Part shown: piece after piece, positions 1,486-57,446 of the stretch
Layout: the number at the start of each line of letters is the position of its first letter
Numbering within the stretch: the stretch's first letter is position 1
Made by a program: the position numbers and the translations under genes
Assembly: GCA_038087875.1 (NCBI GenBank)
Contig: CM075989.1
Coordinates: 8,062,001 to 8,126,000 of the forward strand
DNA from: Malacoraja senta
Taxonomy: Eukaryota
DNA length: 64,000 nt
Reading direction: 5' to 3'
The notes under the pieces: model-generated
The model's database searches: none
What the model saw: the letters and a program-made list of their open reading frames with translations, nothing else
Told to the model about the DNA's origin: nothing

Positions 1486-1580
1486 CTGAAGAAGGGTCTC
1501 GACCCGAAAAGTCACCCATTCCTTCTCTCCAGAGATGCTGCCTGTCCCGCTGAGTTACTCCAGCATTTTACTTCTACCCT
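1486..1580 (+). mobile_element. Penelope-like terminal repeat fragment with hammerhead-like core (representative of many copies)
   Basis: CTGAAGA-A-GGGTC-TC-GACCC-GAAAAGTC followed by gatgctgcctgtcccgctgagttactccagca. The same unit terminates the coding PLE at 51516-51610. Confidence 0.8.
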
Positions 1581-1752
1581 CACTATCGTTAAATCTTGTG
1601 CTGGTCAACTTGTAAGACAGGTTTGTTTCTAAAGCTTGTTTTCATTTGCAACCTGGAGCCACTCCACTGCCAGGACTACGACCATCACCATAGTAACTGT
1701 ATGGTGTCTTCAGCAGTAGAGGATGGGGCAGGGTGGGTATGGAAAGTGAGAT

Positions 1753-1768
1753 GGAGGAGGAGGAGGAG

Positions 1769-1859
<91 letters not shown>

Positions 1860-1864
1860 CAGAG
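1753..1864. repeat. (GGA)n-(GA)n microsatellite
   Basis: Directly visible purine repeat. Confidence 0.97.
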
Positions 1865-2328: not shown

Positions 2329-3064
2329 GAGAGTTTACAAATATATCAGTATCCAAATAGTCTTGCGTAGATACATTGATAATCTTTTGTACAAAAACAT
2401 TAACACAGCGGAATCGAAAGTGCACAGAAGAACAATGTATTTATAAAATGGCAATAGGCCATGTAAAGAGATATTAGCGCAGGTACCAAAAGTTAATTGA
2501 ACAATGGATTGATGAGGTGGAGAGTAGGAGGTGGAGAGTTTTAGAGAGGGAATTTCAGACCAGAGTTGAAAGCCTGGCGAAATGTGTAAGAAGGAACTGC
2601 AGATGCTGGTTTAAACCAAAGATGGGCACAAAAAGCTGGAGTAACTCAGCGGAACCTTGGACTTTCTGGTGGGACAATGGAGGAGGCCCAGGACAGAGAG
2701 CTCAGTATGGGAATGGGAAGGGGAGTTAAAGTGTTTGGCAATTAGAAGATCGCGTAGGCCAAGGGGGACAGAGTGTAGGTGTTCAGTGAAACAATCATCC
2801 AGTCTGATACGATACTACTACTATGGTACATTGGTAAGAGTGATTGGGGAGCTGCCAAATTTCCTTAGCCTTCTGAGCCGTTGGTGTAGTTGACAACTAC
2901 CTTTTCTGTCGTGTCAATGGAGTTAATCATTAATTTAATTTGTAAGCCAGATTAAGAAAAGGTGGTCATCTGGAGCTTGGCCATGATAAACTGTGATTGC
3001 CTGAGTGCCAGAATAGATTGAGGGGCTGAATGGCCTCATCCTGTTCCTACATTGAGGTTGTTCA

Positions 3065-3515
3065 AGAAGGAACTGCAGATGCTGGAAAATCGAAGGTAGA
3101 CAAAAATGCTGGAGAAACTCAGCGGGTGAGGCAGCATCTATGGAGCGAAGGAAATAGGCAACGTTTCGGGCCAAAACCCTTCTTCAGACTGATGTAGGGT
3201 GGGGGGGAGGGGGCAGGGAAGAAGAAAGGAAGAGGAGGGGCCAGAGGGCTAAGGGGGAGCTGAGAAGAGGAGGAGACAGCAAGGGCTACCGGAAATTGGA
3301 GAAGTCAATGTTCATGCCGCTGGGGTGCAGACTGCCCAAGCGGAATATGAGGTGCTGCTCCTCCAATTTCCAGTGGTGCTCACTCTGGCCATGGAGGAGG
3401 CCCAGGACAGAAAGGTCGGATTCGGAATGGGAGGGGGGAGTTGAAGTGCTGAGCCACAGGGAGATCAGGTTGGTTAATGATCGAAAAGATCGCCGAGCCT
3501 ACGCTTGGTCTCACC
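3065..3515 (-). mobile_element. Penelope-like element 3' fragment (GIY-YIG C-terminus plus terminal repeat)
   Basis: PDLPVAQHFNSP and HLIFRLGSL-type coding remnants matching 51707-51950; hammerhead-like core at 3160-3187. Confidence 0.82.
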
Positions 3516-3517
3516 GA

Positions 3518-3786: not shown

Positions 3787-3859
3787 CGTCCACTTTTGGG
3801 CTCGAACCCATGAACCTGGGATTAAGAGTCCCATGCTCTACCGACTCAGCTAGCCGGGC
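3787..3859 (-). pseudogene. tRNA-Lys(CTT) pseudogene
   Basis: Minus strand reads GCCCGGCTAGCTGAGTCGGTAGAGCATGGGACTCTTAATCCCAGGTTCATGGGTTCGAGCCCAAAAGTGGACG (73 nt). It matches vertebrate tRNA-Lys-CTT with an intact anticodon arm, but D-stem, T-stem and acceptor-stem pairs are broken. No CCA. Confidence 0.88.
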
Positions 3860-6270
3860 TGTTGCAAGAGCAGGAGAATATTGGACCGTTCCTTTGTACT
3901 GTCTGGTTAAAAGAGCTTGATTGAAGGGGCCTGATTGAGAGAGTTGGAGAGGGAGGTGGTGGGTTGTGGTCAGTTCCGTTTTAGTTTGGATAGCACGCAA
4001 CAGAAACTTTTCACTGTACCTCGGCAAACGTGACAATAAACTAAACTGAACTGAACTGAGTCAGCAGTGAGCAGGAGGGAATCTCCAGGGACTGGGAAGG
4101 TGAGAATGGTGAATGGCAGTGACATGGTCATGATTGGGGATGACCATGGAAGCCACCCATGTTTAAAGATGGATTTATTATTGTCTTAAGTACTGAGATA
4201 CTGTGAAACTTTGTTTTGCATGCTATCTAGGCAGATTGTACCACATATGATTAGAACATAGAAAGGAACCAGGGTGCAGAATCTACTGTTAGATAGATAG
4301 ATAGATAGATAGATATGCCTTTATTGTCATTCAGACCGAAGTCTGGACGAAATTGTTACAGCTATAGACAAAATGCAGATAGAAAAGGGAAAACAAAGCA
4401 TGAATGTTGAAAATCCATATTAATTGCGTCGTTACAGAAACAAGAAACTGCACATGCTGGTTTACAAATAAAAAAATCCCAAAGTGCTGGAGTAACTCTA
4501 CGCGTCAGGCAGCGTCCCTTGAGAACATGGATAGTTGACGTCTCACGTCAATCTGAAGAGACGCGAAAAGTCATCTGTCCGTGTTCTCCAGAGATGCTGC
4601 CTGACCCGCCAAGTTACTCCAGCACTTGGTGTCTTTTTTTGTGTGTAATTCTGTCATTTGTTCCCCTGGTTACCAGGAATGCAAGCCGGAATGTGACTCC
4701 AAACCCTAGCAGCATGGTTGACTCTTGGACGCCCTTTGTAATGGAATTGCGAGCAATTAGCTGCAAGCAAAATATGCTGGCTTTGTCAGGGCTACACACA
4801 CCCAGAATCAATTATCATTTGTGGAGGAATGAGAGGAGGTGTAGGTAGTTTACACCAAGCACTACTGACTTGGGTAAATATTTGTGGTTTTGTGACTAAC
4901 TGATTACCAAAAGCAAATCACTTTCAGCATTCGCACAACCGTTGAGTAACCCGTGTAATAAAAGAAATAGGGATGCATTCCCTCTCACCCTCCCCCCCCC
5001 CCTCACCCCCTCCCCCACCCTAGTTGTCCTACCAGTTCCACTGTTCACATCCCTGGTACCCCTCCGTTACCATCTATTTCCCAGCCAACAATCGGCCATT
5101 ATGGGCTCCAACCTTCCCTGGTCTTCTGTTGCCGCCTCTGATTTGTTCTGGCCTCTTCCTACCTCCAGTTCCCCACCCTCTACTTTCAGTCGGAAGAAGG
5201 GTCCCAAACGACACCTATTCCTTTTCTCCAGAGACGCTGCCTGATCCGCAGTTACTCCAGCACTTTGTGTCTATCTTCGGTATAAACCAGCACCTGCAGT
5301 TCCTTCCGCAAAAAGAAAAAGAGAGCTTGGAAACGCACCATTTGGCCACGTCCGCCCTGACTATCCAGATCCCATTTACATGAATCCTAATTTATTTCCA
5401 CATTCCCATCCCATCCCCCCACATTATATCACGTAACCACATCCCACAGACTACTTGCAATGGCCATTTAACCATATGCACCTTTGGCACGTTGGAGGAA
5501 ACTAGAGTAGCTGACAAAACTCATGGATCAGAAAGAGATATGCAAACTCCACACAGACATCACAGGAAATCTGGAACTATGAGGCAGCAGCTCTAATGAC
5601 TGCACCAGAGTAATCCCATTCATAATAAAGGCAGTACATCATAGAGTCACAGTCATAGTGATAATCGTACTGAGGTGTAGCCATTCAGCCATTGAATCTG
5701 CATCATCAACCATCACTTACACTGGGATTAATAAAGGAGTAGTGTATCCTCCACACTTTCCCTCTAACTATGCACGAGGGACATTTTACAATGGCTCAAT
5801 TAAACAACGAATTTGCACATCTTTGGGATGTGAGATGAAACAGGAGCACCCGGGGGAAAGCCACGTGGTCACAGGGAGAACATACAAACTCCACACAGAC
5901 AAAACCCAGTGTCAGGATTGAACCCAGGTCTTGGGTACTAAGAGGCAGTGGTTCTACCAGCTGTACTGTTGTTACCACAGTTAGACCAGAGTGAGGAGAT
6001 GTGGTTTTAATCTGATCAACCGAGACCCTACTAAATCTCTCAGTCGCCCGCTCCCACTCCTGACATGAGGAGGTTTCTATTTCTTTAAAGTCTCAGAGGG
6101 CTTTGCAAGCAATACACTTATTTTCCAGTGCTGTTGTGATGTAATAATATGAGCAGCCTATTTGCACACAGCAAGCTTCTATAAAACTGCAGCAAAGTCA
6201 ACAGATAATACACGTTGGTGTTGTTTGTTGAGGGAAAAATATTGTCTTGGGCAGTAGGGGAGCTACCTAA

Positions 6271-7229: not shown

Positions 7230-8254
7230 TAACTCTCCTTTCAATCCTGCACTTTGCATCCATGATCCTTGAAGCCTCACCCATTGCACACCCCCTTAAA
7301 GTCACAGAGTCAAACAGCATGGAAACATAGTCTTCAGCCTAACTCATCCACGCCGACCAAGTTGCCCCATCAGCTATTTACATTGGGCCCATATCCCTCT
7401 AACTTGTTCCTATTCCATGTACCTGTATACAGAAAATATTCAAGTACATGTCTTGTCAAGGTATAAGGTATACCCTTTAAACAGTATTTGATAAGGTTTA
7501 AAATACCTTTAAAATTTAAACTTTTGTCAATTATCTCTTCTCCTAGCTCGTTCCGTATATATACCATTTCCATGAAACATTGTCCCTCAGGTTCCTATTA
7601 ATATTTCCCCTCCCACATTAAATCTATGTCCTCTGGTTCTTGATTTCCCTACCCTGGGTAAATTACTCTGCGCATTCATCCTATCAACTCCCCTCATGGT
7701 TTTATACACCTCTATAAGATGACCAAACTATCAATCCAGAGTAGGTGCTGGTGAGGACATGAAACCCACAAACATCTGAGTCAGAGGTGACAGACAGCCA
7801 ACTGAGGCTCAAAACACAAGAGCCAGCTGCAACCTCTGGAGAAAACACCAGTGAACACTGGTGTTCATCTCAAGTCTGTGTCATCAAAATACTCGACCAA
7901 AAAACAAAGTGTTGGAGAAACTCAGCGGGTCAGGCAGCATCTTGCGGAGGGAATGGACAGATGACTGTTCAGGTCGGGGCCCTTCTTCTCCAGGTTGAAG
8001 TAGGGTCCCGACCTGAAACATTGTCTGTGTGTTTCCCTCCACCGATGCTGTCTGGCCTGCTGAGTTCCTCCAGCACTTTGTTTATTGCTCAACATTACAG
8101 CAAATGCAGTCTCTTGTCTCTCTGCAATCAAAGAGAATAAACCACAGGTGACACCCATAAGCTAGAGGTTATTGAGGTGTCTTGGTGGAAAATAGCAGTC
8201 AGCTCCCTTAGTTTGTAGCAGGTTCTTGCCATTGATGTCAGCTCTCTCATTCAT

Positions 8255-9461: not shown

Positions 9462-11954
9462 ACATTGAATTTGACTGAATATCAAATGCTCACTTACTTT
9501 GCAACCTCCAATACATCCCTGAAGGGATTTCAGTTCAAAAATTAAAATTGATCTCAAACCTGCAGACATTGATATTTGCCACTGATATTCACATCGATAT
9601 ATGACCCCCTCAAAAAGATAGCCAATATTATGAATGAGCTGTACCACACTGGCCACGTCCTCATTTCACTCCAGCATCTGCAGTCTCTTGCGTCGCTTGG
9701 GTTTCGGTCAACCTTGGTGCAAAGGGATTTCAGTTCAATAACACTGATGTTGTAGCCAAGAATTGCAAACATGCCAATGCAACCAAGTGTATCCATTGTC
9801 GAAAGTTACCTTCATAAGAAGAGTTGCCTCGCAAAGGCATCTGACACCTGTACACATTGTCCCTCCATAAAGTAGTTACTTAGAGACACACATCAGTGCA
9901 CCCAAAACAGGGAGAGTTAAGATTAACAGAGGGAAATATTTATCAGAATGGTTAGCAATATGAAATAGATTCCATGCTACACTGGTTCATCTCTAGAATT
10001 CTCTGCCCAAATGTAATGTGGAGTCCAGCTCATTCAAAGTATTTAAAGTGCATTTAAAGTAAATAATATTTTGAAGGAAAAAGGGGTTGAGGACTCTGGG
10101 ATTCTGGCACAGAGAGATTTGAGTGGTGGGGTAGTTCAGCCATGATCACATTGGATGGAACAGCCACAAGGGGCCGAGTGGCCTCCCCTGTTCCTATTTC
10201 CTTGTAAAAAAACACATAAAGTGCTGAAGTAACTCAGCAGGTCAGGCAGCATCTCTGGAGAACAGGGATAGGTGACGTATTGGGTTGGGATCCTTCTTCA
10301 GACTGACGTGAAATGTCTCATATCCATGTTCTCCAGAGATTAGTACAGGTGTTGGATGTTACGGAGAGAAGGCAGGAGAATGGGGTTGAGAGGGAACGAT
10401 AGATCAGCCATGATTGAATGGCGGAGTGGCCTTGATGGGCCGATTGGCCTAATTCTGCTCCTATAACTTATGAACATGAGATGCTGCCTGAACGGCTGAG
10501 CTGCTCCAGCACTTTGTGCCTTATTTTGTACATGACCATCTGCAGTTCCTTGTTCCTACCACGACCGAATCTCTACTGATTTTCATCATTCATTCTTTGT
10601 TTTTCCCTTTTGATCTGCACTTTCTCTGTTGCTGTAGCACAAGTTTGAAGAAGGGCCCAGACCCAAAACGTTGCGTATTCATGTTCTCCAGAGATGCTGC
10701 TTGACCCGAGAGTTTTACTCCAGCACTTTGTATCTTCTTTTTGTAAACCAGCATCAGCAGTTCCTTGAGTCTCCTATTTTGTGAAGCTCTGGTGATGTGA
10801 TTTGATGTGAATCGGCTGGATACAACAACAAGGGATAGAGGGGCTGCTGGACACAGGGGCAATGAGGAGCCAAATTACCTTTACTCACCTTTGTTTTTTT
10901 ATGTTTAAGAAAGAACTGCAGATGCTGGAAAAATCGAAGGTAGACAAAATATGCTGGAGAAACACAGCGGGCGAGGCAGCATCTATGGGGAGAGGGAATT
11001 GGCGACGTTTCGGGTCAAGACCCTTCTTCAGATTGCCGTATTTTAAGTTGTGCATAGAGAAAGTTTTCCACTGCAGTTTGCAGCGCTTAAAATGCAGCTA
11101 CTTGCAGTAGTTAAGACGCTATGTAAAGTATCGTTTAATGACTTTTAAAACCGGTTGAACAGGCTTCCTATTTTTGATTACAAAGCATTAGTTTGCTGAG
11201 TCAGCAAATCTCAGATAAAAGGTTGGAATTAGTTCTGCCTAAATCATAGTATCTCAATGAAAAAGACTCTAAAACTGGCTGATGCCATGTCAATGTGCGC
11301 ATGTGGGAGTTGGGTAGAGCTGAAATGATGAGTATAATCAAGGTCAAAGAGAGATAACTAGACAAGGATGATTAAATGTTCTGTAAAACACTGTTGCTCA
11401 ATTGTGGGAATGGCATCACTGGAATGCGGGCAGTCAGGCCTGAAGCATTGTTACACCAGAAATACCGATGGTTTGGATCCTCTGAGGATCAGAGCAGTTT
11501 TACTCTAGTTTAGTTTAGTTTAGAGATACAGTGCGGAAACAGGCCCTTCTGCCCTCTGAGTCCGCGCCGTCCAGCGATCCCCGTTTACTGGCACTGTCCT
11601 ACTTACAATCGGGACAATGTACGATTTTACCAAGCGTGGGAGGTGATCGGCGCACCCAAAGAAAACCCACGCAGGTTACGGGGAGAACGTACATACTCTG
11701 TATAGACATTTGTCAACAAGAGTTTATTAACTTGGTTTGATTATCAGGCGATTTGGAAATTTAGCTGTATCGGTTTTAAATGTGAGGCAATGGACCAGTT
11801 TTGCGGATATCAGTGCAATGATACCGTTAACGGAAGCCTTGTGTTAAATAGCTGGCAGTTCAATTATTGATAGGAACATAGAGATGGGAGCAGGAAATGA
11901 CACAGAGCTTCACTGGAAGCACAGGCATCATAAAGGGTGAGACCAATCGACTGG

Positions 11955-12375: not shown

Positions 12376-15300
12376 CTTTTTTCAGTTGGGAATCCAATGG
12401 AACGACCTGAAGAAACAACGAAAAATCCTCCATGTGTTGGGCCCTGCCGCCATTATTAAAGATAATTTTCTGTACTCTATTACTATTTGTGAAATGTTGC
12501 CGTGTGCAATTTAGTTGCTGTTTCTCACTCAGCAACAGTGTCCTCATTTATAATATCAGCGTCAGCTGCAAAATAATGCCGTGAAAATCCTCACAGAATC
12601 GCCAATCTCTCTTTCCTTCCTTTATGGATTTGCCAGCAAAGAAAGGAGTTTACTGAGCATCCAATTTTAAGTCAATTATCATGCTGGCTAAAGTAGATTG
12701 TTGTGATAACATTACCCAGCCAGTGTTGTCACCACACCAATGTTTGTATGGTGAATAAAGCAGAGAGAGTGGTAACTAACTGGTTCACTATTTGTGCCAA
12801 GAAATCGCTCATAATCAAAATACTGCAACAGGAGAGACAGGCCCAGGAAAATAACGGATACAAGAGACTAGAGATGTTGGAAACTGCAGCCAAAAAAAAA
12901 ATCAAAAACAATGCTGGAGGACACAGCGGGTGAAGCAGCATCTGTGGAGGCAGAGGGGTGGTTGAGGTTTCGGAAGAGACTTAATCTTTAGTCAGAGGGT
13001 GGTGAATCTGTGGAATTCATTGCCACAGATGGCTGTGGAGGCCAAGTCAATTTTAAGCCAGAGATTGACAGATTCCTGATTAGTAAGGGTGGCAGGGGTT
13101 ATGGAGGAATGGCAGGAGAATGAGGTTGTGAGGGAGAGATAGATCAGCCATGATGGAATGGCAGGGTGAACTTGATGGGCTGAATGGCCTAATTCTGCTC
13201 CTGTAACTTATGAAGTTATGAAGAGATCCTGCTTTAAGACAGTGATCAGAATGTTGGTGGAGGAGTATGGGTGGGTCTTTGTTCCGGAGGGAGGTGAACC
13301 TTCCTGATAGAGGAGAGAGGACTGGAGATCCACGAGGGACTTAATATTTAATGTGCTGTCCATTAGACATTCTCTTCGAAGCCTGCCCACATTGTTTCAG
13401 TGAAACAGTCCTCCACCTCTCTTCAAGCGCAGTTCTGAGTCCCTCTTTCAACATTCTTCCTCGCTGTTATTCATACTGCTCCTCTACTCTTCGACAAGAA
13501 ATGTACCGTGAAGGTTTGCATTTGTATAGCAACTTAAAATAGGAAAATGAATGTACAAAGGAGTGAGTCTCCTTTTTGGGTTTGGAGGCAACATTTGTTT
13601 GACTGCATTGCTCTTAACATTTGGGATGTTTTTAACATCTGCGGTGCTACTGAAATGTTGTTAATGGAAGCAGAATGTGTTTTGACATTGAGGAACTAGT
13701 TGGCTGCAGAAACGATGGATTGTAATTACTGTATGCTTGAGATGTATTGCTCAGATTGCCAAAACGCTACTTACTTTGTGAACCAAGTTGATATAAAACT
13801 GCTAACATTAGCAATACAGGAATTCTATGTAAAGACATTAAATTCAATTGCCCTCCCCCAAAGAGCAGCAGAGTCCAAAGAGATCTGATATCGGTGTTTT
13901 AAGATCATAAGTGATAGGAGTAGAATTAGGCCATTCGACACGTTTAGTCTACTCCGCCATTCAATCATGGCTGATCTATCTCTCCCTCCTAACCCCATTC
14001 TCCTGCCTTCTCTCCATAACCTCTGACACCCGTTAAAGTCGTAAAATAAACAGTAGGGTGGGTTTAGTCAGATTCTATCGGCAAAGAACAAAGGCTGATA
14101 GACAAAATGTCAAAGAGTTGGAAGGAACTGCAAATGCTGGTTTTATACCGAAGGTAGACACAAAATGCTGGAGTAACTTAGCAGGTCAGGCAGCATCACT
14201 GGAGAAAAGGAATAGGTGACTTTGTGGGTTGATACCCTTCTTCAGACAGAGAAACAGATGGCTGAGGAAACTCCTACCCCCTATCACCCCTTTCTTTCCC
14301 GCGGCCCCCACTGCCACCATGATCTGCTTCCATTTTCCCACCATCTCCCACTAGAGCCGAGTCACCTTGCTCTTGTCCCTTCCTCCGTACACTCATCTCT
14401 CATCTCCCTCATTTCTCTTTTTTCTCCCCTCTTTCCCCTCCCATTTATCTTCTTCTACCCACATCCCTCCCTCTGGATTTACATTTCATTCCTCCTCTCC
14501 TCTTCTTATCTGATATCTCTAGCCTTTGTCACTTGCTCCAACCATTTGGCAATCACCGCCGCACATATGCACCTATCACTTGCCAGGCTTCGTCCTGCCC
14601 CCACCTCCCTCTTGCAGCTTTCTCCACCCTACTCCAATCAGTCTGAAAAAGGGTCCTGACCCGAAAGATCACCTATCCATTCCCCTCCACAGATACTGCC
14701 TGGCCCACAGAGTTCCTCCAGCACTTTGGGTTTTGCTCAGAATTCCAGCATCTGCAGTCCCTCATGTCTTCACATTGAGCTATCTCATCAGTTTCACTAC
14801 CAATGAATTTGTGCCAGTGTTTCTTAATCCTTTAATCCCATTTAAAACTGGCAAAGAATAATTTATTATTCCACAGACTATATAAGCCTTTATTCTTCCA
14901 TAAAGTCCTGGTCGGTGTGGTTTCCTAGCGGCTGCTGTTTAATATTCTATTTCTTATTTGACCTCAGAGTTCACTGCGTTTCTCATTTATTCTCTGGTCC
15001 ATGTTCATTGTTGTCAAAATATAAAGTAATCAATGTAGTGAATGCCAAAACCCAGCAGTTTGCTACTGAATAATGTTTGGCAGAATTACTCTCTGCTCCA
15101 CATAATAAAGACTTGGACTTTTGCAGAGACACTCACAAACATTTTAGCACACACCAAAGTGATTTACAGCCATTTTTCAGTTGAGGGTGTGGACGCAATG
15201 AAAATATGTAATGGCATAGGAACACCAGTGTACTCCAAAGACGTACAGGCTTGTAGGCTAATTGGCGTAGTAAAGTTGTAAATTGTCCCTAGTGTGTGCA

Positions 15301-15712: not shown

Positions 15713-17587
15713 TAAGCAGGGTTCCATCTAGTCTCCTTAATGGATTTGATGATTCCTCTCTCCCGGTTGCTGACACTTTGAACACACATTGGTATGAAGC
15801 TGCCACTGGGCCTATTCCTTTCAGGGCAGCAAAGGGAAAGCTGGGAACCCAAAAGTGAGCTAAAGTAGAGACAGCACTAATGTAACCTGCAGAAACACGT
15901 AAAGCCAGGTCAGAATATCTCAAAGGATTTTAAAGAAGATAGACACAAAATGCTGGAGTAACTCAGCGGGTCAGGCAGCATCTCTGGGGAAAAGGGTCAG
16001 AATCCTTCAGAACAAAATATTTTGAAAGTAGTCATTTTCGTACTGTAGGAAACCGGAGGAAAAAAATTACTATAGTCTATTGTCCAACTAACCTGTTTTA
16101 TATTTTTGATTGAGACAAAACTCTCGTGGAGAACACATTCATTCTTTTTCAGAATAGTCCTACAGAATAGTTTAAATTATTTAAGGCCGGCACGGTGACG
16201 AAGCTAGTGGAACTGCTGCCACAGAGACCCGGGTTCAATCCTGATGTCGGGTGCTGTCTGTGTGGAGTTTGCATGTTCTACTCGTGGTTTTTGATCTGGG
16301 TACTCTGGTTTCATCTCACATCCTAAAGACGTGCAGGTGTGTAGGTTAATTGGCCACTGTAAATTGACCCCTAGTGTGTTGGGAGCGGATGGGAAAGTGG
16401 GATAACATAGAACTCATGTGAATGGATGATCGATGGTTGGCATGGACTAGTGGGAGGTTGACAAGTGAAAAAGGGGCATGTTGGTCGGTGTGAGCATGGG
16501 CTGAAGGGCTTGTTTCCACACTGTATGACTCAATTTTTAATCTCCATGCTCCTCTAATTCCTGACTCCTTGCACTTACCCAGTCGTGATAATTCGTGATA
16601 ATTCTTTCAGTATTCTGTAGATCCATTTCTAAATCCATTTATAATTCTAAATCTTTATAATGGTATATTATTTTCTCCAACCCCCTATTCGTATTGGGAA
16701 GAAATTAATGTTCCTCCTCCTTCAATTTCATTTTGTAATTTAGTTTTGAGATGCAGTGTGGAAAACAGGCTCTTCGGCCCATCGTGTCCGTGCCAAACGG
16801 CGGTCCCCGTACTCTAGCTCTATCCTACACATTAGGGACAATTTAAAATTTTAACTGAAGCCAAATTACCTACAACCCTGTACGGCTTCGGAGTCTGGGA
16901 GGAAACCAGAGCACCCGGAGAAAACCCACACAGTCACAGGGAGAAAGTACAAACCCCATCTCCGTATTGCTCTGTATTACTACGGTCCCTCTAGTGAAGG
17001 TAGCCTAACATCTCCTGAGATTATTCTTGACAGATTCTGTTTGACAAACTCCTGTAAACATTTTTCACCGTTAGACGCGATATTTGGATACAAGCTGTTG
17101 ACTCAATGCACTTGCCAAGAGGTTTGCCAATTGCCTTTGGCAGGATACATTAAGGTATTTTAAAAGTTAACTCTGATGGTTTATTGCTGGTTGATGAGAA
17201 TATTATTTTCCCACTGACTGAGATTAATTTGTAACTAACAGCAAGTTAAACCATTAACAGAAACTGTGCATAATCAGAAATGGTTCAATTGACCTTTGCA
17301 AATCATTCTACTTTTTCCCCTCAAGTAATAATGCGTGGAATATTACTTCACAAAAAGCAGGGAAATATGTAAACAAGTTGCAAACTGCAGCAGAGTGAAA
17401 ATGCCAAAGTGGTTTATCAATAGAAATGCACAGTCTGAGATTCACCAAGTGCTTCGTGTTGGTGTTGGGTTGTTGTAGACGGTATTTGTAAAGGGCCACT
17501 TCTGGGCATTAATAAACATCTCTGTTTCATGGTAAGACTTGGATCCTTTGCCAAATAGCTCTTGCAAACTAAAGAGTATCTACAAAC

Positions 17588-20654: not shown

Positions 20655-20950
20655 GCGACGCAGCGGTAGAGTTGCTGCCTTACAGCGCCACAGTCCATGG
20701 TTCGATCCTGACTAGGGGTGCTGTCTGTACGGTGTTTGTACAATCTCCCTGTGACCGCGTGGGTTTTCCCCGGGTAATCCGGTTTCCTCCATGGTTCCAA
20801 AGACCTACAGATTTATAGATTAATTGGCTTTGGGGAATACAAATTGTGAATTGTCCCTAGTGTGTAGGATGGTGCTAGTGTGTGGGGATTGCTGGTCGGG
20901 GTGGATTTGGTGGGCTGAAGGTCTTGTTTCCACACTGTATCTCTAAGGTC
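20655..20950 (+). mobile_element. V-SINE (HE1-like)
   Basis: gcagcggtagagttgctgcc A-box region, ggttcgatcc B-box, body and LINE-derived tail. Confidence 0.85.
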
Positions 20951-41563: not shown

Positions 41564-41690
41564 GTATTCCACGAACACAGCATTATCTTTGGCTATCGCC
41601 AACCACGATGCACTGCCACCGATTGCCTCTTCAGTCTCTTCCAGCTGACGAATGAGACCGTCAACATCTGGACCCACTTCCTGCCAACCT
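41564..41690 (+). CDS. PAQR5: PAQR5-like coding exon 2 (donor phase anomalous)
   Basis: Acceptor ttgttgtctccgacag, then VFHEHSIIFGYRQPRCTATDCLFSLFQLTNETVNIWTHFLPT with the PAQR GYR and NETxNIWTH motifs. The only GT donor is ACCT|GTAAGA. Confidence 0.92.
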
Positions 41691-44600
41691 GTAAGAGCTG
41701 ACTGTTCCCGAGCCTGTCCCAACACAGGTAGAGCCGGGACTCGCAACAGAACCTTTTACAGGTTTGGCTTGGTCGCAATAGGCATTGCACAGAGCAACTG
41801 TCTCACCAGCAGCTGTGGGTTGAACGATGAACGATGACTTCATGTGTGGGAAGGAACTGCAGATGCTGGTTTCTACCGAAGGTAGACGCAATGTGCTGGA
41901 GTAACCCAGCGGGCCAGGCAGCGTCTCTGGAGAAAAAGGATGAGTGATGTTTCAGGTCAGAACCCTTCTTAAGAATCTGTACAGAACCTGTCTTGAGATA
42001 GGTTCCAACACAAAATGTCACTCATCATTTTTCTCCAGAGATGCTGCCTGACCCGCTGAGTTACCCCAGCGCTTTGCTTCTATCTTGAGCAGTGTTTTAA
42101 TCTGCTTTCAGGGATACTCATCTTTAACAGAAAAAAGCTTGATTTCATCTAAAAGTTATTCATATGGCTCCGTGTTTAGTAGAGAGTCCTGATGATTGTA
42201 AATGCTACTTCATAAATCGCACACACAATATTTTTATCGGTGCTCCAACTGATGTAATCAGATCTACAGTAATCACCTGAGAACATTGGAACCTCTTTTT
42301 CGAGACAACTGTACTCTGAAGAGGCATGGAATGGGTGGGACATCAAAGATACAGTCTATCAAAGGTCTTGTTAAAACTATTCCTGGCTTCATGTTCGGCA
42401 TGGACATTGTGGGCCAAAGGGCCTGTTCCTCTGCTGTACTGTTCTACGTTCTTCATGAGGAAAAACTTTTTCACCCAGAGAGTTGTGAATCTGTGGAATT
42501 CTCTGCCACAGAAGGCAGTGGAGGCCAATTCACTGGATGTATTCAAGAGAGAGTTGGATATAGCTCTTGGGACTAACGGAATCAAGGGATATGGGGAGAA
42601 AGCGGGAACGGGGTACTGATTCTGGATGATCAGCCATGATCATATTGAATGGCGGTGCTGGCTCGAGGGGGGAATGGCCTACTCCTGCACCTATTTTCTA
42701 TTGATCTCTGGCTTAACTCACAGGCTACATTCTACAACTGCACAAAACTTCTAGCTAAGCAGCAAGGTCATCCATTGATGACGTTTTGTGTTGGGACTCT
42801 TCTTCAGACTGATCGAGTAGCGGGGAGATAGTTAGTGGAAACAAGCAAGGGGAGGGGGTGGGGCAAGTGCTGGCAAGTGATAGGTGGATCAGAATTGATT
42901 GACAGATGTTGGGTGGTGGGAGGGAGGGGGGAGGAGGTGGAGATGGTCACCAAGGCTGGAGGTAAGCAGTGGGAAGACAATCACCTTCACCCTTCTCTTC
43001 CCCACCTAACTCATCTACCAAACATCCCATCCTTACCTAGATCCACCTATCATTTGCCAGCTGTTACCCCCACCACTTCCCCTCGACTCTTTCTACCAGC
43101 TCTCTCCCCTCTACTCCAGTCTCAAAGAAGGTTTCCGACCCAAAGCATCATCTGTGCATCTCCCTCCACAGATGCTACCTGACCCACTGAGTTTCTCCTT
43201 GCCCTCCATTTCAGAATAATAGTGTTTTAAGCCGATAACTCAACACTAGCACTGGCAATAAATAAAAAAGCGCCGCTTTCCAGCCCATATCTCGTTGGCC
43301 ACGCTCGGTTGCACATCGGTGACAATCTGGTGGACTCTTCCATCTTCCTCTCGTTGGGGGATTGGGAGGGGCCTCACAAGTGGAATAGCCTAGGGCCTCT
43401 CTTCATCTAAATCCGGCCCTGCCCATTCCTTGTCTCCAGACATGCTGCCTGTCCTGCTGAGTTACTCCAGCATTTTGTGTCTACCATGGGTCAGGCAGTG
43501 TTCACCACCTTTTTGCAATCTCCTTCATTCCTGGGTGCTTGAGTTGCTGAACCAGGCCGCGAGGCAACCAGTCAATATGCTCTCTGCCGTACACCTGTAG
43601 AAGTTCAAGAGATTATTCATCGACATGGATAGGACAGGTTTGGAGGCATATGGACCTAGCGCAGGCAGGTGGGGCTAGTGTAGCTGGGACATGTTGGCCG
43701 CTGTGGGCAAGTTGGGCCGAAGGGCCTGTTTCCACACTGTATCACTCTGTGACTCCATGACATACTGAATCTGCTCAATCTTCCACAGAGGTAGAGGCAT
43801 TGAAGGGCATTGTTTATGATTGCATCAATGTGCTGGGTCCAGGACAAAAACATCAGAGTTTTATTGTTCACTTAAAAATTAGCACATACTCAGGGGGATG
43901 GCAGATTTTGCCCAATCAAATTGTAATGCATCGGAAGGTAGGTGGGAGTATATTGTTTCGTTTGAAATGCATGAAAATGTTTTCTCCTGTTCTCTGAGTT
44001 TTCATTTACCTCTTTTGTCAAGTATAAAGAATGTGGCAGAGCAGGGAGTGGCTGAAGGGAACATTGGAACAATTATCAATAGTGGATACTGGAACGTTCT
44101 ATTTGGCAGTGTGTCATGTTATTTATATCGTGATAAGGTTTTGTTACATGTTACAATGCTGTGAAACATTGTTACAGTGATGGCAGCAGTGTCATTTTTT
44201 TCCTTTGTTGGAGAAAGATTCTCATGTACCAGGGCAAACTCGCCATCCCAGGCCATCCCATAATGTTTCACAGTCGCTCCAGTGAAATACTTTTGTGCTT
44301 TGTAAAATAAGGAACAGAATATCCAGGAATTACTCAGCAGGCCAGGCTGCATCTGCGGGAAGAGAAAACAACGAACACTTCAGGTCACAGACCCTTCAGA
44401 AGGGAAGGGAAAACGTGAGTGACAGGGAACTGCAGATGCTAGTTTACCACAAAAGGACACAAGGCACTGGAGTAACTCAGCAGGTCAGGCAGCATCTCTG
44501 GAGAACATGAAAACCTCACTTCACCTATATCCACAGCACCACCTTGACTTTATCCTGCCCCCCCACCCCCCCCCCCCTCTTCCAGCTTTCTCCCCTCCCC

Positions 44601-45195
44601 CTATTACAATCAGTCTGAATTAGGGCCCCGACCCAAAATATCACCTCTCCATGTTCTCCAGAGAAGCTGCCTGACTCCATCACTTTATGTCTTTTTTAAG
44701 AAGAATGTTAACTCTATTTCTCTTCCCACAGATGCGGTCTGACCTGTTGAGTATTTCCATCATGTTCTATTTTTATTTCAGGTTTGCAGCATCTGCAGTT
44801 TTTCCTTGATTTTCACTTGCGTTTGAATTAGAGACAGTGTGACGCATGAAGATCTAAGAATCAACGTGTGATAATCATATAATCTGCGGAGCAATGTAGA
44901 CTGAGGGTGGATATGGGTGAGGTCACTGGGAGAACTACTCTTGCACGAGCAACATATAGTGCGTGGGATCTGTCACTTCAACGCAGAACAGCAGAGGGAG
45001 CTTTGTGTGATAACTCAGCTGAGAACAGCATTAAGAAGAGATGCAGTGATTCCTACGTACTGTCCTTCAAATGGGTGCAGCACTCCCTCAATACTGCCCC
45101 TCCAGCTGTAGAATACAGTTGCACAATCGATTTTCCGGCACCCTTGGTTCCACAGCCTTGCCGTATTATCCGTTTTGCCAGAGCTACAGAGGTCA

Positions 45196-50207: not shown

Positions 50208-51392
50208 TAACACCCAAGGATGAAGGAAAGTGCATAGAGTGGTGGGCATTGCCCTCACCATTGAAGGGATCTACACGAGGCGCTGTCTCAAGAAAGAAGC
50301 CAATATCATCAGACACCCACACCACCCTGGCCAAACTCTCTCGTAACCGGTCCCATCTGAAAGGATGTACAGGAGCTTGAGAGGCATTATCTCCATAATC
50401 GACCTGTTTGAGGAGTACAAATTATGAGGGGCATGATAGGGTAGACGGTAAACCTTTCCCTTAGAAGAGATATAGAGTTTTAATAAGATACAGCAGGGAA
50501 ACAGGCTCTTCAGCCCATTAGTTCCATGATCATGAAGCACACATTTACACAAATCTCATTTCATTCTCTCCATATTCCCATTATCAGCCCCATCACCTCA
50601 ACCCCCCCCCCCTCCCTCCCCCAAGCTTCTGACACTCATCTCCACCAATGAGGTTATTTACAGCGGCCGATTAACCAATCGATCCGCACGTCTTTGGAAT
50701 GTGGGTGCAAACCAGAGCAGCCAGCGGACGCCCACGTGGTCACAGAGAGAGTGTGCAAACTCCACATAGTCAGCACCAGAGGTCAGGTATTGCAGGTACA
50801 CAAAAATGCTGGAGAAACTCAGCGGGTGCAGCAGCATCTATGGAGCGAAGGAAATAGGCAACGTTTCGGGCCGAAACCCTTCTTCAGACTGATAGGGGGT
50901 GGGGAAAAGAAAGGAAAAAGGGAAAAAAGGCGGAGGAGGAGCCCGAGGGCTGGGGGATGGGAGGAGACAACCAAAGGGCTGATGAAGGGGAGGGGACACC
51001 CTGGTCTCTGGAGCTATAAGAAGGCAGCTCTACCAGCTGCTGTACTAACTGTGCTGCTGGTGTCTAGAGCACGAAGGCAGATGTTTAGAGTAAGGGATAA
51101 TGTGTTCAGAGGGGGATCCAAGAAATAGACGTCACCCAGAGGTGGTTGGAACCTAGAACACCCTGCCTGCATGGGTGGTGGAGGCTGATACTCTCCAAAC
51201 ATTTAAGAATGATCCAGATGAGCATTTGCATCACCAACACATAGAAAACTACTGAGTGGCCAGTGGTAAATGGGATTCATTTAGATGAGTATTTAATGGT
51301 TGGCTGGGACACAAAAGGTGAAAGGACATATCTGTGTTGTACGAGTTTATGGCTCTGGGTAAAGTACCTTCTCCGACATTCCTCATCAGATT

Positions 51393-51515: not shown

Positions 51516-53028
51516 ATAGACACAAAATGCTGGAGTAACTCTGCGGGACAGGCAGCATCTCTGGAGAGAAGGAATAGGTGACGTTTAGGGTCGAGACCCT
51601 TCTTCAGACTGATGTCAGGGGAGGGGGCGGGACAAAAATAGAATGTAGTCAGAGACTGGTGGGAGACTTGGAAGGGGAGAGGATAGAGAGAGAGCGAAAA
51701 CAAGGGCTATTTGAAGTTAGAGAAGTCAATGTTCATACTGCTGGGGTGTAAGCTACCCAAACAAAATATGAGGTGCTGTTCCTCCAATTTGCGCTGGGCA
51801 CTCTGACAATGGAGGAGGCCCAGGACAGAAAGGTCAGATTGGGAATGGGAGGGGGAGTTAAAGTCCCGAGCAACCGGGAGATCAGGTAGGTTAAGGCGGA
51901 CTGAGCAGAGGTGTTCAGCGAAACGATCACCAAGCCTGCGTTTGGTCTCGCCGAAGTACAGAAGTTGACACCTGGAACAGCGGATACAGTAGATGAGGTT
52001 GGAGGAGGTGCAAGTGAACCTCTGCCTCACCTGAAAAGACTTTTGGGGTCCTTGGATGGAGTCAAGGGGGGAGGTAAAGGAACAGGTGTTGCATTTCCTG
52101 CGGTTGCAGGGGAAAGTACTTGGGGAGGGGGTGGTTTGGGTGGGGAAAGGACGAGTTGACCAGGGAGTTGCGGAGGGAACAGTTTCTGCTGAAAGCAGAA
52201 AGGGGTGGAGATGGGAAGATGTGGCCAGTGGTGGGATCACGTTGGAGATGGCGAAAATGTTGGAGGATTATATGCTGTATGCGACGGCTGATGGGGTGGA
52301 AGGTGAGGACAAGGGGGACTCTGTACTTGTTGCGAATGGGGGGAGGGGGAGCAAGAGCGGAGCTGCGGGATATCTATAATAGAAGAGGGGAACCCACGTT
52401 TCCTAAAGAATGAGGACATCTCCGATGGCCTGGTATGGAAAACTTCATCCTGGGCGCAGATGGAGGAATTGGGAGTAGGTGGTAGAGTCTTTACAGGAAG
52501 CAGGGTGGGAAGAAGTGTAGTCCAGATAGCTATGGGAGTCAGTAGGTTTGTAGTAGATGTCGGTCAGTAGTCTGTCTCCTGTGATGGAGACGATGAGATC
52601 CAGAAACGTTAGGGAGATGTCGGTGATGGTCCAACTGAATGTGAATGCAGGATGGAAATTAGTCGTGAAAATTATGAAGTGAGTGAGTTCTGCATGGGTG
52701 CAGTAGGCAGCACCGATGCAATCGTCAATGTAGCAGAGGTAGAGTTCGGGGATAGGGCCAGTGTACACCTGGAACAGAGATTGTTCGACGAACCCTTCAA
52801 AGAGGCAGGCATAACAGGGGCCCATGCGAGTGCCCATAGCTACGCCTTGGATTTGGAGGAAGTGGGAGGAGTCGAAGGAGAAATTGTTGAGGGTAAGGAC
52901 CAGCTTTGCTAGGCGGAGGAGTTCCATTTTCCAGGCTCCCACTCCCTCATCTTTACCATGGATGTCCAGTCACTCTACACCTCCATCCCCCAACCAGGAA
53001 GGTCTTAAAGCCCTCCGTTTTTTTCCTC
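51516..53028 (-). mobile_element. Penelope-like retroelement (Neptune-type): decayed RT plus GIY-YIG endonuclease, 3' terminal repeat and 5' inversion
   Basis: RT: NNFSFDSSHFLQIQGVAMGTRMGP...YIDDCIG...FLDL...YYKPTDSHSYL. Linker: PCNRRKCNTC. Endonuclease: NLIYCIRCSRCQLLYFGETKRRLGDRFAEH. Terminal repeat with hammerhead-like core at 51580-51607. Confidence 0.93.
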
Positions 53029-56000
53029 CTCAATGTGTGGGTGTGTGTGGGTGTATATTGCTATAAGATACAGATTCTCCCAAAAGTAGGAACATTTTAT
53101 TTATATCCTGGTAAATCTGTCAATCTGGCCTTTTCCCCAAGTTACTACACTGAACATAGAACAGTGTAGTACAGGAACAGGCCTTTCGGCCCACAATGTC
53201 TTTGCTGGCCATGATGCCAATTAGTCTAAGGCCATCATTCTGACATATGGTCTCCATCCTTCAATGCCTTGCCTGTTCATGTGCCTGTCTAAATGTCTCT
53301 TCAATGTGGCTATTGTATCTGCTTCCACTACCTCCCATGGCAGTGCAGTACGGGCACCTACACTCTGTGTAAGAAATGTGCCTCGCAAATGTCCTTTCAA
53401 CTTTGCTCTCGTCTTAAATCTGTACCCTCTTGCATCTGTCATCACCACCCTGGGAAAATGACTCTATCTACCTTCTCCATGTCTCTCCTGTATGCTTCTA
53501 TCAGGATCTATACTTTGCTGAAAATTGCAACCTCTCCATTCTGGTACCACTTGTGCAAATCTTTTCCTTTGCACCTCTTCTGGCACCAAATAATAGTGTG
53601 ATATTTTTGCCTCCAACAATCTGTTGTATTAACACACATAATTGCAGAAGAAAGCTGGTATCAGTGACGGCAACTATAAAACGACCCGAATTGTTGTGAA
53701 ACCCTCTGATTCACTGAACCTCCAGTGAAGTAATGGCCTGCATTGTCCATTTTGAGCTCCATATGTGACTGTAGACCACCCATGGTTGACTCTTAACTAT
53801 CTACAGTCAGGCCAATTTAGAAGAACCAATAAATAGTAACATCACCAGCAATGTCTATGTAGCATCAACTAATTTTTAAAAGATATTTTGAATGAATGAT
53901 GAAAGAATCAAAAAGTGAGATGTCCAGATGTCAACTGCGGTTCATTGGTTACCCTCCTGCTTGTGAAATCAGGAGGTTACATGTTAATATCAACTCCTGG
54001 GGATTTATTCTTGAAACCTGGTCTCTTGTTCCGATGGAGTGCTGAGAGACTGTGCGGCATTCAGAGTGTTGCGCTGTAAGAAATATTGTTGATCAGAATG
54101 AGGGGATATCGTTACAAATTAAAAGGGCGATCATTTTAAACTGGAGTGGACAGGAAAAACCTTCCACAGAGCACGTTGAATCTCGGGAATTCTCTACCCA
54201 GAGGGTTTATTGTACAGATACAGTGTGCAAAAATAGGCCCTTCGGCCCCTCCGCGTTCGTGCTGACCATCGATCACCCGTACACTAGTTCTATCCTGCAC
54301 ACAAGGGACAATTTACAGAAGCCAATTAGCCTACAAACCTGCACGTCTTTGGGATGTGGGAGGAAACCGGAGCACTTGGAGAACACCCACGCGGTCATAG
54401 TGGGAAGCTCCAAACTCCATACAGACAGCACCGGCAGTCAGGATCGAACCCGAGTCTCTGGTGCTGCAAGGCAGCAACTCCACCGCTGTGCCACCTTGCT
54501 GCCCTGATAGTGGTGGATGGATCTTTGGGGAAGAGAGGTTAAGAGAAGGCAGATAAATGTTTAAAGGATCAAAGGATGTTTAAAGGTTAAAGCCCTCCAA
54601 AGACATACAGGTTTGTAGGTTAATTGGCTTGGGTTTGTATACTTGGTATTAGTGTAAATTGTCCCAAGTGTATGTAGGCTTGTGTTAATGTGCGGGGATC
54701 GCTGGTCGGTGCGGACTCAGTGGGTCGAAGGTTCCGCGCTGTATCTCTAAACTAAACTAAACTAATCAGGGAACTGAGGACTGTGAGGAACTGGCACAGA
54801 ATAAGACATGAGGCCTGGGGCATATACGTCATGATCATTTTAACAGGCTTGAGGAGCAAAGTGGCCTACTCCTGTTCCTTTATCCTTATGATATTTATTC
54901 TTCAAACATTGGCTGAATGCTACTTTGATGTGTTTGAACGTCTGTGCTAAAAATTGGATTTTGCACCTCATTTGGAAGAATTCCCATTGAGGAAGAATTA
55001 GAATCTGAAGCATTGAAACGTGACATTTGACCCAACCATTATATTCTCGTGAAGATAGACACAAAGAGCTGGAGTAACTCAACAGGTCAGGTAGGTAAGG
55101 GCTATCTCCCCTTAACCTCTCCCGCCCATGATCCGTCCTCCAGGCCCTTCGGCCCAACTTGTCCACACCGACCACTACACTCGTCCCACCTGCCTGCGTT
55201 TGGCCCAGACTCCTCTAAACATGTCCTATCCATGTACCTGTCTAATTGCTTATTAAACGTTGCGATAGTCCCTGCCTCAACTACCTTCTCCGGCAGCTCG
55301 TTCCATACACCCACCATTCTTTGTGTGGAAAAGCTACCCTATAAAATCTTTCCACCTTCACCGTAAACCCTTGCCCTCTTCTTCTCGATTCCCCTCCTCT
55401 GGGCAAGCGACTCTATGCGTCTACCCGATCTATTCCTCTCATGATTTTATGCACCTCTAATATCACTCCTCATCCTCCTGTACTCCAGGGAATAGAGGCC
55501 TAGCCTGCTCAACCTCTCCCTATAGCTTATACCCTTGAGTCCTGACAACATCCTTGTAAGTCTTCACTTATAACTATTAGGTACATGGATAGAAAATGTT
55601 TAGAGGGATATGGGCTAAACACGGGTAAGTGGGACTAGCTGAGATGGGACAACATGGATGAGTTGGACCGAAGGGACTGTTTCCGTTCAGCATGAATCCA
55701 GGGCTCTATGACGCTATTAGGCTGAGAAGGAATTTTGGAAGTTGATGTCCCAGTGTGTTCTGCAGCACCCTGCAGAAATGGTGCAGGACCCAGTGTGCGC
55801 ATTCCTGCACCAACTACTAAAACATACAACATGAAGTACAGCACAGGAATAGGCTCTGTATCTGTGCCGAACATGATGGTAAGATAAACTAATCTCATCT
55901 GTCTGCACATGGTCCATAACCTCCCATTCTCTGCATATCCAAAAGCATCTATCTAAAAGCATTTTACTATTAAAACCTTTCTAAAAACACCACAGTCATA

Positions 56001-56275
56001 TCTGTCTCTACCTGCCCTGGCAGCACGTTCCATGAACTCTATCTTCTCATGTCTTCCACAAAGACTGTTTCTTGCAAGTCAAATACAAAGGACAACTTGT
56101 AAGTCGGGAGTAAAGAAGACGAAGTAAGATAGACTCTTAATTGTGCTTTGACCCCCATTAGGACCTCCTAAAGCACCTTGCATTTGCCCATGGAGCGTTT
56201 TGAAGTGTAGTCACCCTTGCAAATGTGGGAGATGCAAAGTTTCCCTCTGCATTAACATGTTGTCTTGTTCTGCAG

Positions 56276-56481
56276 GTACTTTGTCTGGAACTTGCTGGCC
56301 CTTTCATACACTCTGGACTTCTGGAACGAAGCTTACACATGGCCATTCCTGGTCTTCATGGTCACCGCTTGTATCTATCCTTTCACCTCAAGCTGTGCCC
56401 ACACGTTTAGCTCAATGTCCACTCGAGCAAGGCATATCTGCTTCTTCTTCGACTATGGTGCTCTGAGCCTCTACAGCCTAG
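56276..56481 (+). CDS. PAQR5: PAQR5-like coding exon 3
   Basis: Acceptor ttgtcttgttctgcag|G, then YFVWNLLALSYTLDFWNEAYTWPFLVFMVTACIYPFTSSCAHTFSSMSTRARHICFFFDYGALSLYSL (SxxxH and DY motifs), donor CTAG|GTGGGA; 206 nt. Confidence 0.95.
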
Positions 56482-57446
56482 GTGGGAGTTGTTGCATTGA
56501 CTACACATGAACTTACAATTGTTGTGGTGTTGGATATGCTCTCAGTGTCTCTTGATGCTCCGCAAGAACGATGGCAGTCGGTTTATATTCATTTCCCCCA
56601 GAACTAGAACAATGGGGCTGCAATCTGCAGTAATCCCACTGTAGCAACTTGACATAGTTACTCCCAAGTCCTCATTCTCTACCGTCTCAAGGGCAGCAAA
56701 ACCAGGGAAGTTGGGAACCTCGTTGCCTGCCGTTTCCTCTCAATAGTCAACAGTGCTTTATTTGTCCCATATGCAACTGCACAATGAAATTATTTTTGCA
56801 TACATTTCACATGCGGGCGCCGCCATTATTGGCGCTATTATACAAAGTCCAAAGTCCGGTCGGCTTGTGCGCTCGATGTACTGGAGCAGTTCCCGTGAAC
56901 CGACGTCCCTCTCCTCTCCTCATCCGGCCATCTTGGTGTCCCGGGGGCACCTCCTGCAGTCGACCTGAATCTGCTGGGCGCATTACTCTGGTTCACCCTC
57001 CAAGTCACGCCAGAAATTACCAGTCCATCATCATCATTAGTCAACCTCTGGACCTGATTATCTCACGTCTGGTACTGTCACCCCTTGGACGGTGGTGATT
57101 TGGGAAGGTTTTTCACCATCTACTACTGGTGGTAAGTCACAGTGGGCCACAAATGCTGGCTTTGATTGCAATGTCCCTGTCCTATCAACGAGAGATAGCA
57201 TTACCTACCCTGTCACATAAACCGAAGATAGGCACCAAATGCTGGAGTAACTCAGCGGGACAGGCAGCATCCCGAGAGAGAAGGAATGGGTGACGTTTTG
57301 GGTCGAGACCCTTCACATAAACCACGTAAACATCAACCACTGCTTACGCTAGCGTGATGCCACAGGTGACACTTTGAGGAGATGCACCCAGGTTACAAGC
57401 CGGTCAAATACAAGTGACCTCTTTGCATTGTTTTCCACCCCCTCAG

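Follow-up and report, generated by a model that had tools for sequence, protein, structure and literature searches.

A short repeat carrying the core of a hammerhead ribozyme recurs throughout a 64,000-nt stretch of DNA from the skate Malacoraja senta (the window, for which alone all counts below are given). Its units are most probably pseudo-long terminal repeats (pLTRs) that belong to Neptune-type Penelope-like elements (PLEs) of cartilaginous fish, with four families or more represented; they would have been inserted as PLEs insert and be dead on arrival. The kind is known and the family is new: the motif itself has been known since 2014, and no paper describing this unit family in skates or rays was found in a search that left most subscription journals, Repbase and Dfam outside. 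An earlier interpretation made from the letters alone (hereafter the sequence-only reading) had already drawn attention to the unit, and its claims are taken up where the relevant results are given.

The unit and its hammerhead core

With a profile including the 3′ extension, the unit amounts to 51 pieces and 5068 bases, or 7.9% of the window; an insertion has divided one of the copies, which is counted as two pieces. When 12 copies from the window were made into a profile, it gave 50 matches at E<1e-3 (21 plus, 29 minus), compared with three in the reversed window, every one at E>=3.7. A relaxed hammerhead pattern matched nine times where 0.46 matches were expected – none of 100 shuffles got to nine – and eight of these matches are copies of the repeat. 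The pieces fall into four subfamilies, A to D, of 14, 8, 18 and 11 members with mean identities of 90, 88, 84 and 82% to their own consensus, although the sorting was seeded by hand-picked copies and a few weak pieces are doubtful. A unit is about 95–105 nt long, or about 130–140 nt including an optional 3′ tail; the sequence-only reading was thus right that a short unit recurs across the window, but its 100–130 nt had left the tail unseparated.

From its 5′ end the unit reads TCAGT, the core box CUGAAGA, an extra A, helix II, GAAA, CG, and U with the cleavage base, which is C or U. Beyond this, a conserved block of 40 nt lies between two variable linkers, of which the first is a pyrimidine linker, and the optional tail comes last. 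The CUGANGA, GAAA and UH boxes stand in type I order, and none of the 11 core columns varies among the four consensuses. Between A9 and 10.1 stands an unpaired base, which is A in each of the four consensuses and T in the copy at 29064, and the 10.1–11.1 pair is G-C in 19 of 26 aligned copies and G-U in four, the D consensus having a G-U that arose by CpG decay. A palindromic ACGT (15.1–16.1 and 15.2–16.2), present in all four consensuses, replaces a stable helix III. The core does not vary, and variable columns are few in the 3′ blocks (6 of 40, 2 of 18) but frequent in the linkers (11 of 15, 11 of 18), so that both the ribozyme and the 3′ domain were kept by the master elements.

Helix II consists of four base pairs, GGGU with ACCC or GCCC, around a CUCG, UUCG or CCCG (YNCG) loop; the 5-bp stem with a 2-nt loop proposed earlier cannot fold. 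That this stem differs between subfamilies was correctly noted, but the difference is one-sided (U-A to U-G): in helices I and II, 26 copies gave 146 cells, drawn from the few families of one window, and none of these cells holds a change on both sides, only U-A/U-G and G-C/G-U being found, and RNAalifold, given 18 copies, returned four pairs with no covariation. As for helix I, the earlier estimate of about 2 bp applies to the A, B and C consensuses, but not to the copies at 11004 and 41244 (1 bp, the 5′ strand there being flanking DNA) or at 29064 (6 bp). The 3′ domain can pair its block with the tail in an 8-bp stem, again without covariation, and a two-stem model of this domain leaves 86% paired, yet is not above shuffles (165/500).

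Single-strand folds do not exceed shuffles in stability (z −0.84 to +1.75), and in none of the five intact units does the probability of helix II rise above 0.03, since GAAGGG or GGGU is taken up in pairs with pyrimidines beyond the cleavage site. Nested double hammerheads are predicted at +0.1 to −9.5 kcal/mol, whereas the best dimers reach −20.8 to −27.5 kcal/mol – a gap of 12–28 kcal/mol. Since such energies leave out tertiary contacts and protein, the calculations show that the active fold would need help, rather than that it is impossible. An Rfam search gave 32 matches in the whole window at E<=10, none of them to a hammerhead family, which is presumably to be expected for a form without helix III. 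Nor did a 28-letter pattern of the motif match viral or metagenome contigs, or any solved structure match.

The absent Rfam match and the lack of covariation would also suit a reading in which the likeness to a hammerhead is incidental, the conserved bases serving the pLTR as a promoter or as a site for protein binding, in an RNA that never cleaves; so would a 3′ domain conserved about as well as the core, and insertion in vitro, for which cleavage was not required (Frangieh 2024, PMC11167929). We find this scarcely credible, given that the 11 core bases, the extra base, G10.1 and ACGT are identical in four consensuses whose linkers differ widely, and that position and form match motifs cleaving in other PLEs (PMC4209133, PMC11167929). 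Judged by its sequence, the motif is a minimal type I hammerhead of PLE terminal repeats. The identification made in the sequence-only reading, palindromic ACGU included, is borne out by the core, the extra base, the G10.1–C11.1 pair, the palindrome and the pLTR position alike.

Coding ends and marks of PLE insertion

A coding PLE lies at 51710–52921 (Table 1), where the shark relative P0003 matches by tblastn in four pieces (60–70% identity, E 6e-144) and Pfam GIY-YIG scores E 0.002, under its cut-off. The frame at 51710–52267 contains CNRRKCNTC, which fits the CX2–5CxxC linker that marks Neptune and Nematis types (PMC8557442); on this motif, which alone defines the clade here, we assign the coding element to the Neptune/Nematis-type endonuclease-bearing (EN+) PLEs. 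The named best relatives of its endonuclease frame come from Mobula, Hypanus, Rhincodon and Rhinoraja at 60–73% identity, the 73% match covering just 43% of the query. P0003 as a query found no locus in either contig collection searched. Back-translation suggests that the Stegostoma protein P0008 extends past the endonuclease into a peptide fitting the same hammerhead, with a different N7. Separately, the skate neuromedin-U receptor 1 model P0007 ends in a piece of the endonuclease of this PLE, either exonised or mis-annotated, and at 22481–22639 (plus) the central part of the PLE coding region is matched twice over a short length, with no unit nearby.

At 51516, as the sequence-only reading had it, the unit ends the coding PLE, following its stop codon and a pyrimidine-rich untranslated region (UTR). 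Altogether, GIY-YIG coding ends are joined to five of the 51 units, from subfamilies A, B and C: four units come after a stop codon and UTR (at 51618, 3198 (B), 17692 (A) and 39025 (C)), and one, at 2654, is joined across a deletion. Pyrimidine-rich, UTR-like DNA lies 5′ of 12 of the 51 units at a threshold of 70%, the case at 10638 being doubtful.

The 3′ ends carry a second signature. The tail is present in 23 of the 51 copies and corresponds to the interval between two end points that recur in public contigs, surveyed in four runs (X3, X4, X19 and X22; four organisms) at 88% likeness to the copy at 3030–3330, with 24 of 1092 loose-end rows listed. Among the matches listed, the end point at 3059 was seen in two of four runs (311 contigs in X19, 54 in X4) and that at 3092–3095 in all four (293, 340, 53+56 and 30 contigs); at both points the flanks are AT-rich and unlike one another.

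Inverted pairs provide a third. Nine head-to-head pairs have their arms within 400 nt of each other, seven of them closer than 100 nt, and in six of these seven – or in all seven, once the split arm is rejoined – only one arm carries the tail (chance 0.015 and 0.007); in the two wider pairs, either both arms are tailed or neither is. In 4437–4641 and 10205–10556 the junction is the same, a short tailed arm from G12 being followed by ACG and by the long arm, which begins at TCAG, and 32479–32678 has a similar junction in a different subfamily. Such a shared junction may reflect either recurrent fold-back or a copied composite.

Head-to-head inverted pLTRs with a tail on one end are the described structure of PLE insertions (PMC8557442, PMC3846280), and the tail has been tied to two internal start sites of reverse transcription on uncleaved RNA (Frangieh 2024, PMC11167929). 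Reverse transcription would thus have a choice of two internal starting points, separated by about 35 nt, giving tailed or tailless copies, and two such copies joined head to head would give the inverted pairs seen in the sequence, the mechanism being that of Frangieh 2024 (PMC11167929). Along with the GIY-YIG joins, these marks support the earlier proposal that the PLE enzyme spread the copies.

Tandem arrays of the unit are absent from the 31 tandem-repeat rows for the window. Seven of eight direct neighbours join different subfamilies, and none of the eight has two intact cores, which fits insertion beside older copies – described in a review – rather than tandem amplification. Elsewhere, run X4 contains two head-to-tail joints, 3194->3064 and 3194->3066, with 34- and 23-nt spacers, possibly from tandem arrays there, which would be genuine candidates for retrozymes in that organism. 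A search for target-site duplications gave words of 6–11 nt at 19 of the 51 copies, a result that, having no chance control, is not used.

Table 1. Positions of the features discussed (letters in brackets, subfamily)
Positions	Strand	Feature	Basis
1486–1582	+	solo unit (A), begins at C3, palindrome lost	
2583–2806	−	GIY-YIG piece joined directly to 3′ part of unit (internal deletion); tail	
3059–3092	−	optional 3′ tail, about 33–36 nt between two 3′ end points	loose ends, unlike flanks, 3059 and 3092–3095
3059–3198	−	intact unit (B) with tail, UTR-joined to GIY-YIG end at 3280–3517; core 3160–3187	
3184–3192	−	near-palindrome TCAGTCTGA, initiator-like, overlaps helix I and C3–A6; 5′ ends pile up	loose ends 3186, 3190
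4437–4641		head-to-head pair, tail on minus arm only	
7890–8121		head-to-head pair, tail on plus arm only	
10205–10556		head-to-head pair; tailed plus arm split by 137-nt insertion, GAGAT duplicated; junction as 4437–4641	
10902–11036	−	core, helix II, ACGT intact; flank replaces 5′ helix I strand; tail	
14630–14769	+	unit (D) with UTR and tail; G8>A	
17586–18004	−	GIY-YIG end, UTR, unit (A); helix II and palindrome damaged	
29050–29160	+	intact core, 6-bp helix I, G-U at 10.1–11.1; sole intact copy on PAQR5 sense strand	
29174–29312	+	direct neighbour of 29050 unit (D); core and palindrome broken	
30920–31116		head-to-head pair, tail on minus arm only	
32479–32678		head-to-head pair, tail on plus arm only	
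33280–57574	+	four PAQR5-like coding exons: 33280–33505, 41564–41690, 56276–56481, ~57430–57574	motif scan, splice sites
38636–39124	+	GIY-YIG end, UTR, unit (C); G12>A	
41164–41280	−	intact-core unit (B), 1-bp helix I, antisense in PAQR5 intron	
41843–42090		head-to-head pair, 10-nt palindrome at junction, tail on minus arm only	
44416–44700		head-to-head pair, tail on minus arm only	
50789–50898	−	intact unit (B) with UTR, antisense in PAQR5 intron	
51516–51618	−	unit (A) ending coding PLE; G12>T core damage; no tail	
51619–51706	−	pyrimidine-rich 3′ UTR, stop codon to unit, about 90 nt	sequence
51710–52921	−	5′-truncated, frameshifted PLE: reverse transcriptase (RT) from motif B on, thumb, CX4CxxC linker, GIY-YIG	tblastn P0003
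52916–53033	+	inverted RT piece at 5′ end of the 51710–52921 PLE insertion	tblastn P0012, P0027
57220–57314	−	unit (A) truncated within core	

Known systems offer several points of comparison. Cervera 2014 (PMC4209133) reported such motifs for fish elements of the Xena, Poseidon and Neptune kinds, where they lie in the pLTRs, and described copies that are mostly single, occur genome-wide by the thousand and are 'probably related to truncated PLEs', with no cleavage of monomers and low cleavage of dimers; the sections consulted do not name cartilaginous fish among the hosts. The unit shares with these minimal hammerheads the type I core, the extra base between A9 and 10.1, the G10.1–C11.1 pair and the palindromic 15.2–16.2, as well as its place in a PLE terminal repeat and its many dispersed single copies in several consensus families. 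Its helix II differs, having 4 bp and a YNCG loop where that of Schistosoma has 7–8 bp, and its 2-bp helix I is as in D. virilis, not of 4–5 bp (PMC4209133). Like Neptune/Nematis EN+ PLEs (PMC8557442, PMC3846280), the elements here combine RT with a C-terminal GIY-YIG domain and a CX2–5CxxC linker, are heavily 5′-truncated, and leave head-to-head inverted pLTRs, a one-end tail (30–40 bp in those elements) and solo pLTRs; they differ in that the window holds no full-length copy.

With PAc, the Poseidon element of Anolis carolinensis (PMC11167929), the unit has in common a pLTR hammerhead, a tail delimited by two 3′ end points, flanks rich in AT and a template that appears to be uncleaved RNA. 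PAc, however, belongs to the Poseidon clade, is without the linker zinc finger and has an open reading frame (ORF) that starts at stem II, whereas the stretch after the ribozyme here seems to be non-coding: it has no match among 123 related proteins, and subfamily changes in it hit first and second codon positions. In all four consensuses the cleavage site is followed by a pyrimidine tract, YAG and ATG (3135–3158, minus), resembling a 3′ splice site; for a splice acceptor or ORF start at this tract, no loose end was found among the matches listed, and no protein match.

Retrozymes are tandems with the motif in each unit, have been found in the single chondrichthyan that was sampled, and gave cleavage in one of nine natural dimers (Li 2026, 10.64898/2026.07.22.740005). 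The non-LTR retrozymes (PMC7229834, 10.64898/2026.07.22.740005) resemble the unit in being short non-coding repeats with a type I hammerhead, kin to PLE pLTRs. They are, however, tandem units of about 150–450 bp, each holding a ribozyme, which is of canonical form in the 2020 cases, and they are expressed as circles (PMC7229834), whereas the units here are dispersed or inverted, 95–140 nt long and minimal, and never stand two intact in tandem. The window thus holds no run of two or more consecutive complete hammerheads (arrays may exist elsewhere), and in place of a canonical hammerhead with a helix I of about 6 bp and a looped helix III we find, in the three consensuses that were folded, a 2-bp helix I and no loop III. 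On the features testable here, the unit reads as a PLE minimal hammerhead in a pLTR and lacks two features that define retrozymes.

Decay of the copies and the position of their 5′ ends

The motif is spanned by 23 of the 51 copies; eight keep the core, and five of these also helix II and ACGT. These five are exactly the 'good' copies of the sequence-only reading (3160–3187, 11004–11031, 41244–41271 and 50860–50887 on the minus strand, 29064–29091 on the plus strand), while what it listed as variants are damaged motifs: G8>A at 14643, G12>A at 39035, G12>T at 51580 and the loss of the ACGT palindrome at 1486. Non-CpG changes affect 27 of 317 core cells and, at the other positions that are invariant among subfamilies, 248 of 2562 cells (p=0.54). 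Loss of G12 was counted in 11 of 36 cases, and G12 and the palindrome CpGs are lost at 29–30%, compared with 22% at other CpGs (p=0.14). In the four public runs, G12>A makes up 10.5, 8.6, 5.0 and 5.7% of depth and six non-core CpG positions average 7.4, 9.0, 5.8 and 3.4%, with 40 of 82 differing positions listed and contig depth not being copy number.

A core that decays like other invariant positions, together with a G12>A frequency near the CpG averages, argues that inserted copies are not under selection to keep the ribozyme. They decay neutrally, mainly at two CpGs, those of G12 and of the ACGU palindrome, and the ribozyme would be selected only in active masters, cutting weakly, as a dimer or aided by a PLE protein. 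The absence of excess core conservation, which the sequence-only reading had named as evidence against its proposal, is thus what inserted copies present, but the core is invariant across the four consensuses.

Most copies (39 of 51) are without UTR, and 20 of these 39 begin within the stretch that runs from 5 nt ahead of C3 to the first base of helix II. Because copies run through the cleavage site, at which only one of the 51 starts, the template appears to be uncleaved RNA. In the public contigs, loose ends with unlike flanks lie at 3186 (X22) and 3190 (X3, X4), hence in three of four runs, with none among the six listed for X19. Position 3190 is the A of TCAGT and suits an initiator consensus, a splice acceptor and the near-palindrome equally.

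Many copies, then, would stop at TCAGT before the core, for which three causes may be considered. The one we prefer, though tentatively and at somewhat less than even chances, is that TCAGT marks the 5′ end of the PLE transcript, reached by run-off after internal initiation in the 5′ pLTR copy; Penelope transcripts are described as starting in the upstream pLTR. Stalling of the RT at helix II or at the C-rich UTR is a possible, rather weaker candidate, and fold-back at the near-palindrome an unlikely one.

Some observations nevertheless weigh against the units being ordinary pLTRs. The 5′ stops reach 0.051 per column in the 15 columns at the 5′ edge of the motif, compared with 0.008 further in (p=7e-8), and 14 of 33 copies still pile up without the boundary column, six boundary calls being dropped (p=0.004) – start calls being heuristic and the arms of one pair not independent. 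A discrete short family would give the same pile-up. One junction is common to two inverted pairs, as if a composite unit had been copied; neither a full-length element with a 5′ pLTR nor a subfamily D unit joined to a coding end was seen in the window; and the core is slightly better kept than all other non-CpG columns (8.5% vs 13.0%; 499/3824, a set that includes columns differing between subfamilies; p=0.018).

The units might accordingly be pictured as a discrete non-autonomous family, SINE (short interspersed nuclear element)-like or made of monomers shed by retrozymes, with its own TCAGT initiator or tandem arrays and copied in trans by the PLE. [quoted passage not shown] We hold it to be improbable: three subfamilies have coding ends of their own in the window, there is no tandem array and neighbours are mostly of mixed subfamily with no two intact cores, only one copy starts at the cleavage site, and the tail and inverted arms mark ordinary PLE insertions. 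The separate retrozyme-like family of the sequence-only reading likewise finds no intact tandem, no set of cleavage-site starts, no compensatory change among the few families of the window and no slower decay of the core than of equally conserved positions to rest on.

A bolder variant, which we think unlikely, makes the skate unit a self-propagating mini-retroposon that accounts for several per cent of the DNA. It would initiate at TCAGT, be copied in trans by the PLE from two internal starts and sometimes be fixed as an inverted dimer, its ribozyme being held off by a competing fold – GGGU pairing past the cleavage site – until protein binds.

The PAQR5 gene, other features and significance

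Part of the window is occupied by four coding exons of a gene that we take to be PAQR5, from its label in the sequence-only reading and from the human protein; the third exon matches Pfam HlyIII (E 4e-12). Within 33280–57574 there are seven sense and 11 antisense units. None of the seven sense units is intact, all being truncated or core-damaged, and both intact units of the span (41244 and 50860) are antisense. The intact sense copy, that at 29064, is separated by 4.2 kb from the first coding exon, on the upstream side, and may belong to a 5′ intron of PAQR5, because that exon has an acceptor and no other gene appears in 77 upstream frames; a Pfam scan of 91 of the 197 non-repeat frames (these 77 and 14 downstream of the span) found only a piece of a DDE transposase.

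The sequence-only reading had suggested that sense copies in the PAQR5 pre-mRNA could self-cleave, and one might add that the host has kept one copy for that. The copy at 29064 is the natural candidate, with its intact core, the only long helix I, the strand of the gene and perhaps a place in a 5′ intron. Yet it has a G-U at 10.1–11.1, no stable helix III and a helix II probability of about 0; its only same-strand neighbour is broken, and the pair folds without a hammerhead. Moreover, a minimal motif on its own did not cleave (PMC4209133), nor did eight of nine natural dimers (10.64898/2026.07.22.740005). With no intact sense copy in the coding span itself, we regard cutting by sense copies, or retention of one by the host, as very improbable; cleavage of PAQR5 RNA appears unlikely from the sequence, and an effect of the units on the host gene is unsupported. 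As to the gene itself, the 127-nt exon, when joined at the apparent GT and AG sites, shifts the next exon out of frame by one base at the 41690/56276 junction, through assembly error, frameshift or use of another splice site, and a 67-nt minisatellite of about 3.5 copies (57790–58025) lies just past the fourth exon.

About 40% of the window matches itself. Further abundant dispersed repeats include those at 20662–20830 and 41036–41134, and one of the dispersed repeats has what we take to be tRNA-like boxes as in SINEs. The stretches 2002–2334, 19620–20219 and 61500–61946 resemble ends of LINEs (long interspersed nuclear elements); Pfam found no match in the latter two. The DDE transposase piece (646–885, minus; Pfam E 4e-4) adjoins a 200-base assembly gap at 989–1188, and a tRNA-like match over the Rfam gathering score (34.4 bits) lies beside a repeat at 3796–3852 (minus).

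For the family at large, the units extend a known motif to a lineage in which it is dense, with one copy per 1.25 kb in the window. Should the unlikely mini-retroposon reading be true, the genome would serve as a natural archive, very large in size, of the points at which PLE reverse transcription begins and ends. The sharp ends of the copies – two at the 3′ side, one preferred at the 5′ side and almost none at the cleavage site – agree with the in vitro model of internal starts on uncleaved RNA, and the end points of the units allow a genome-scale test of that model of PLE reverse transcription.

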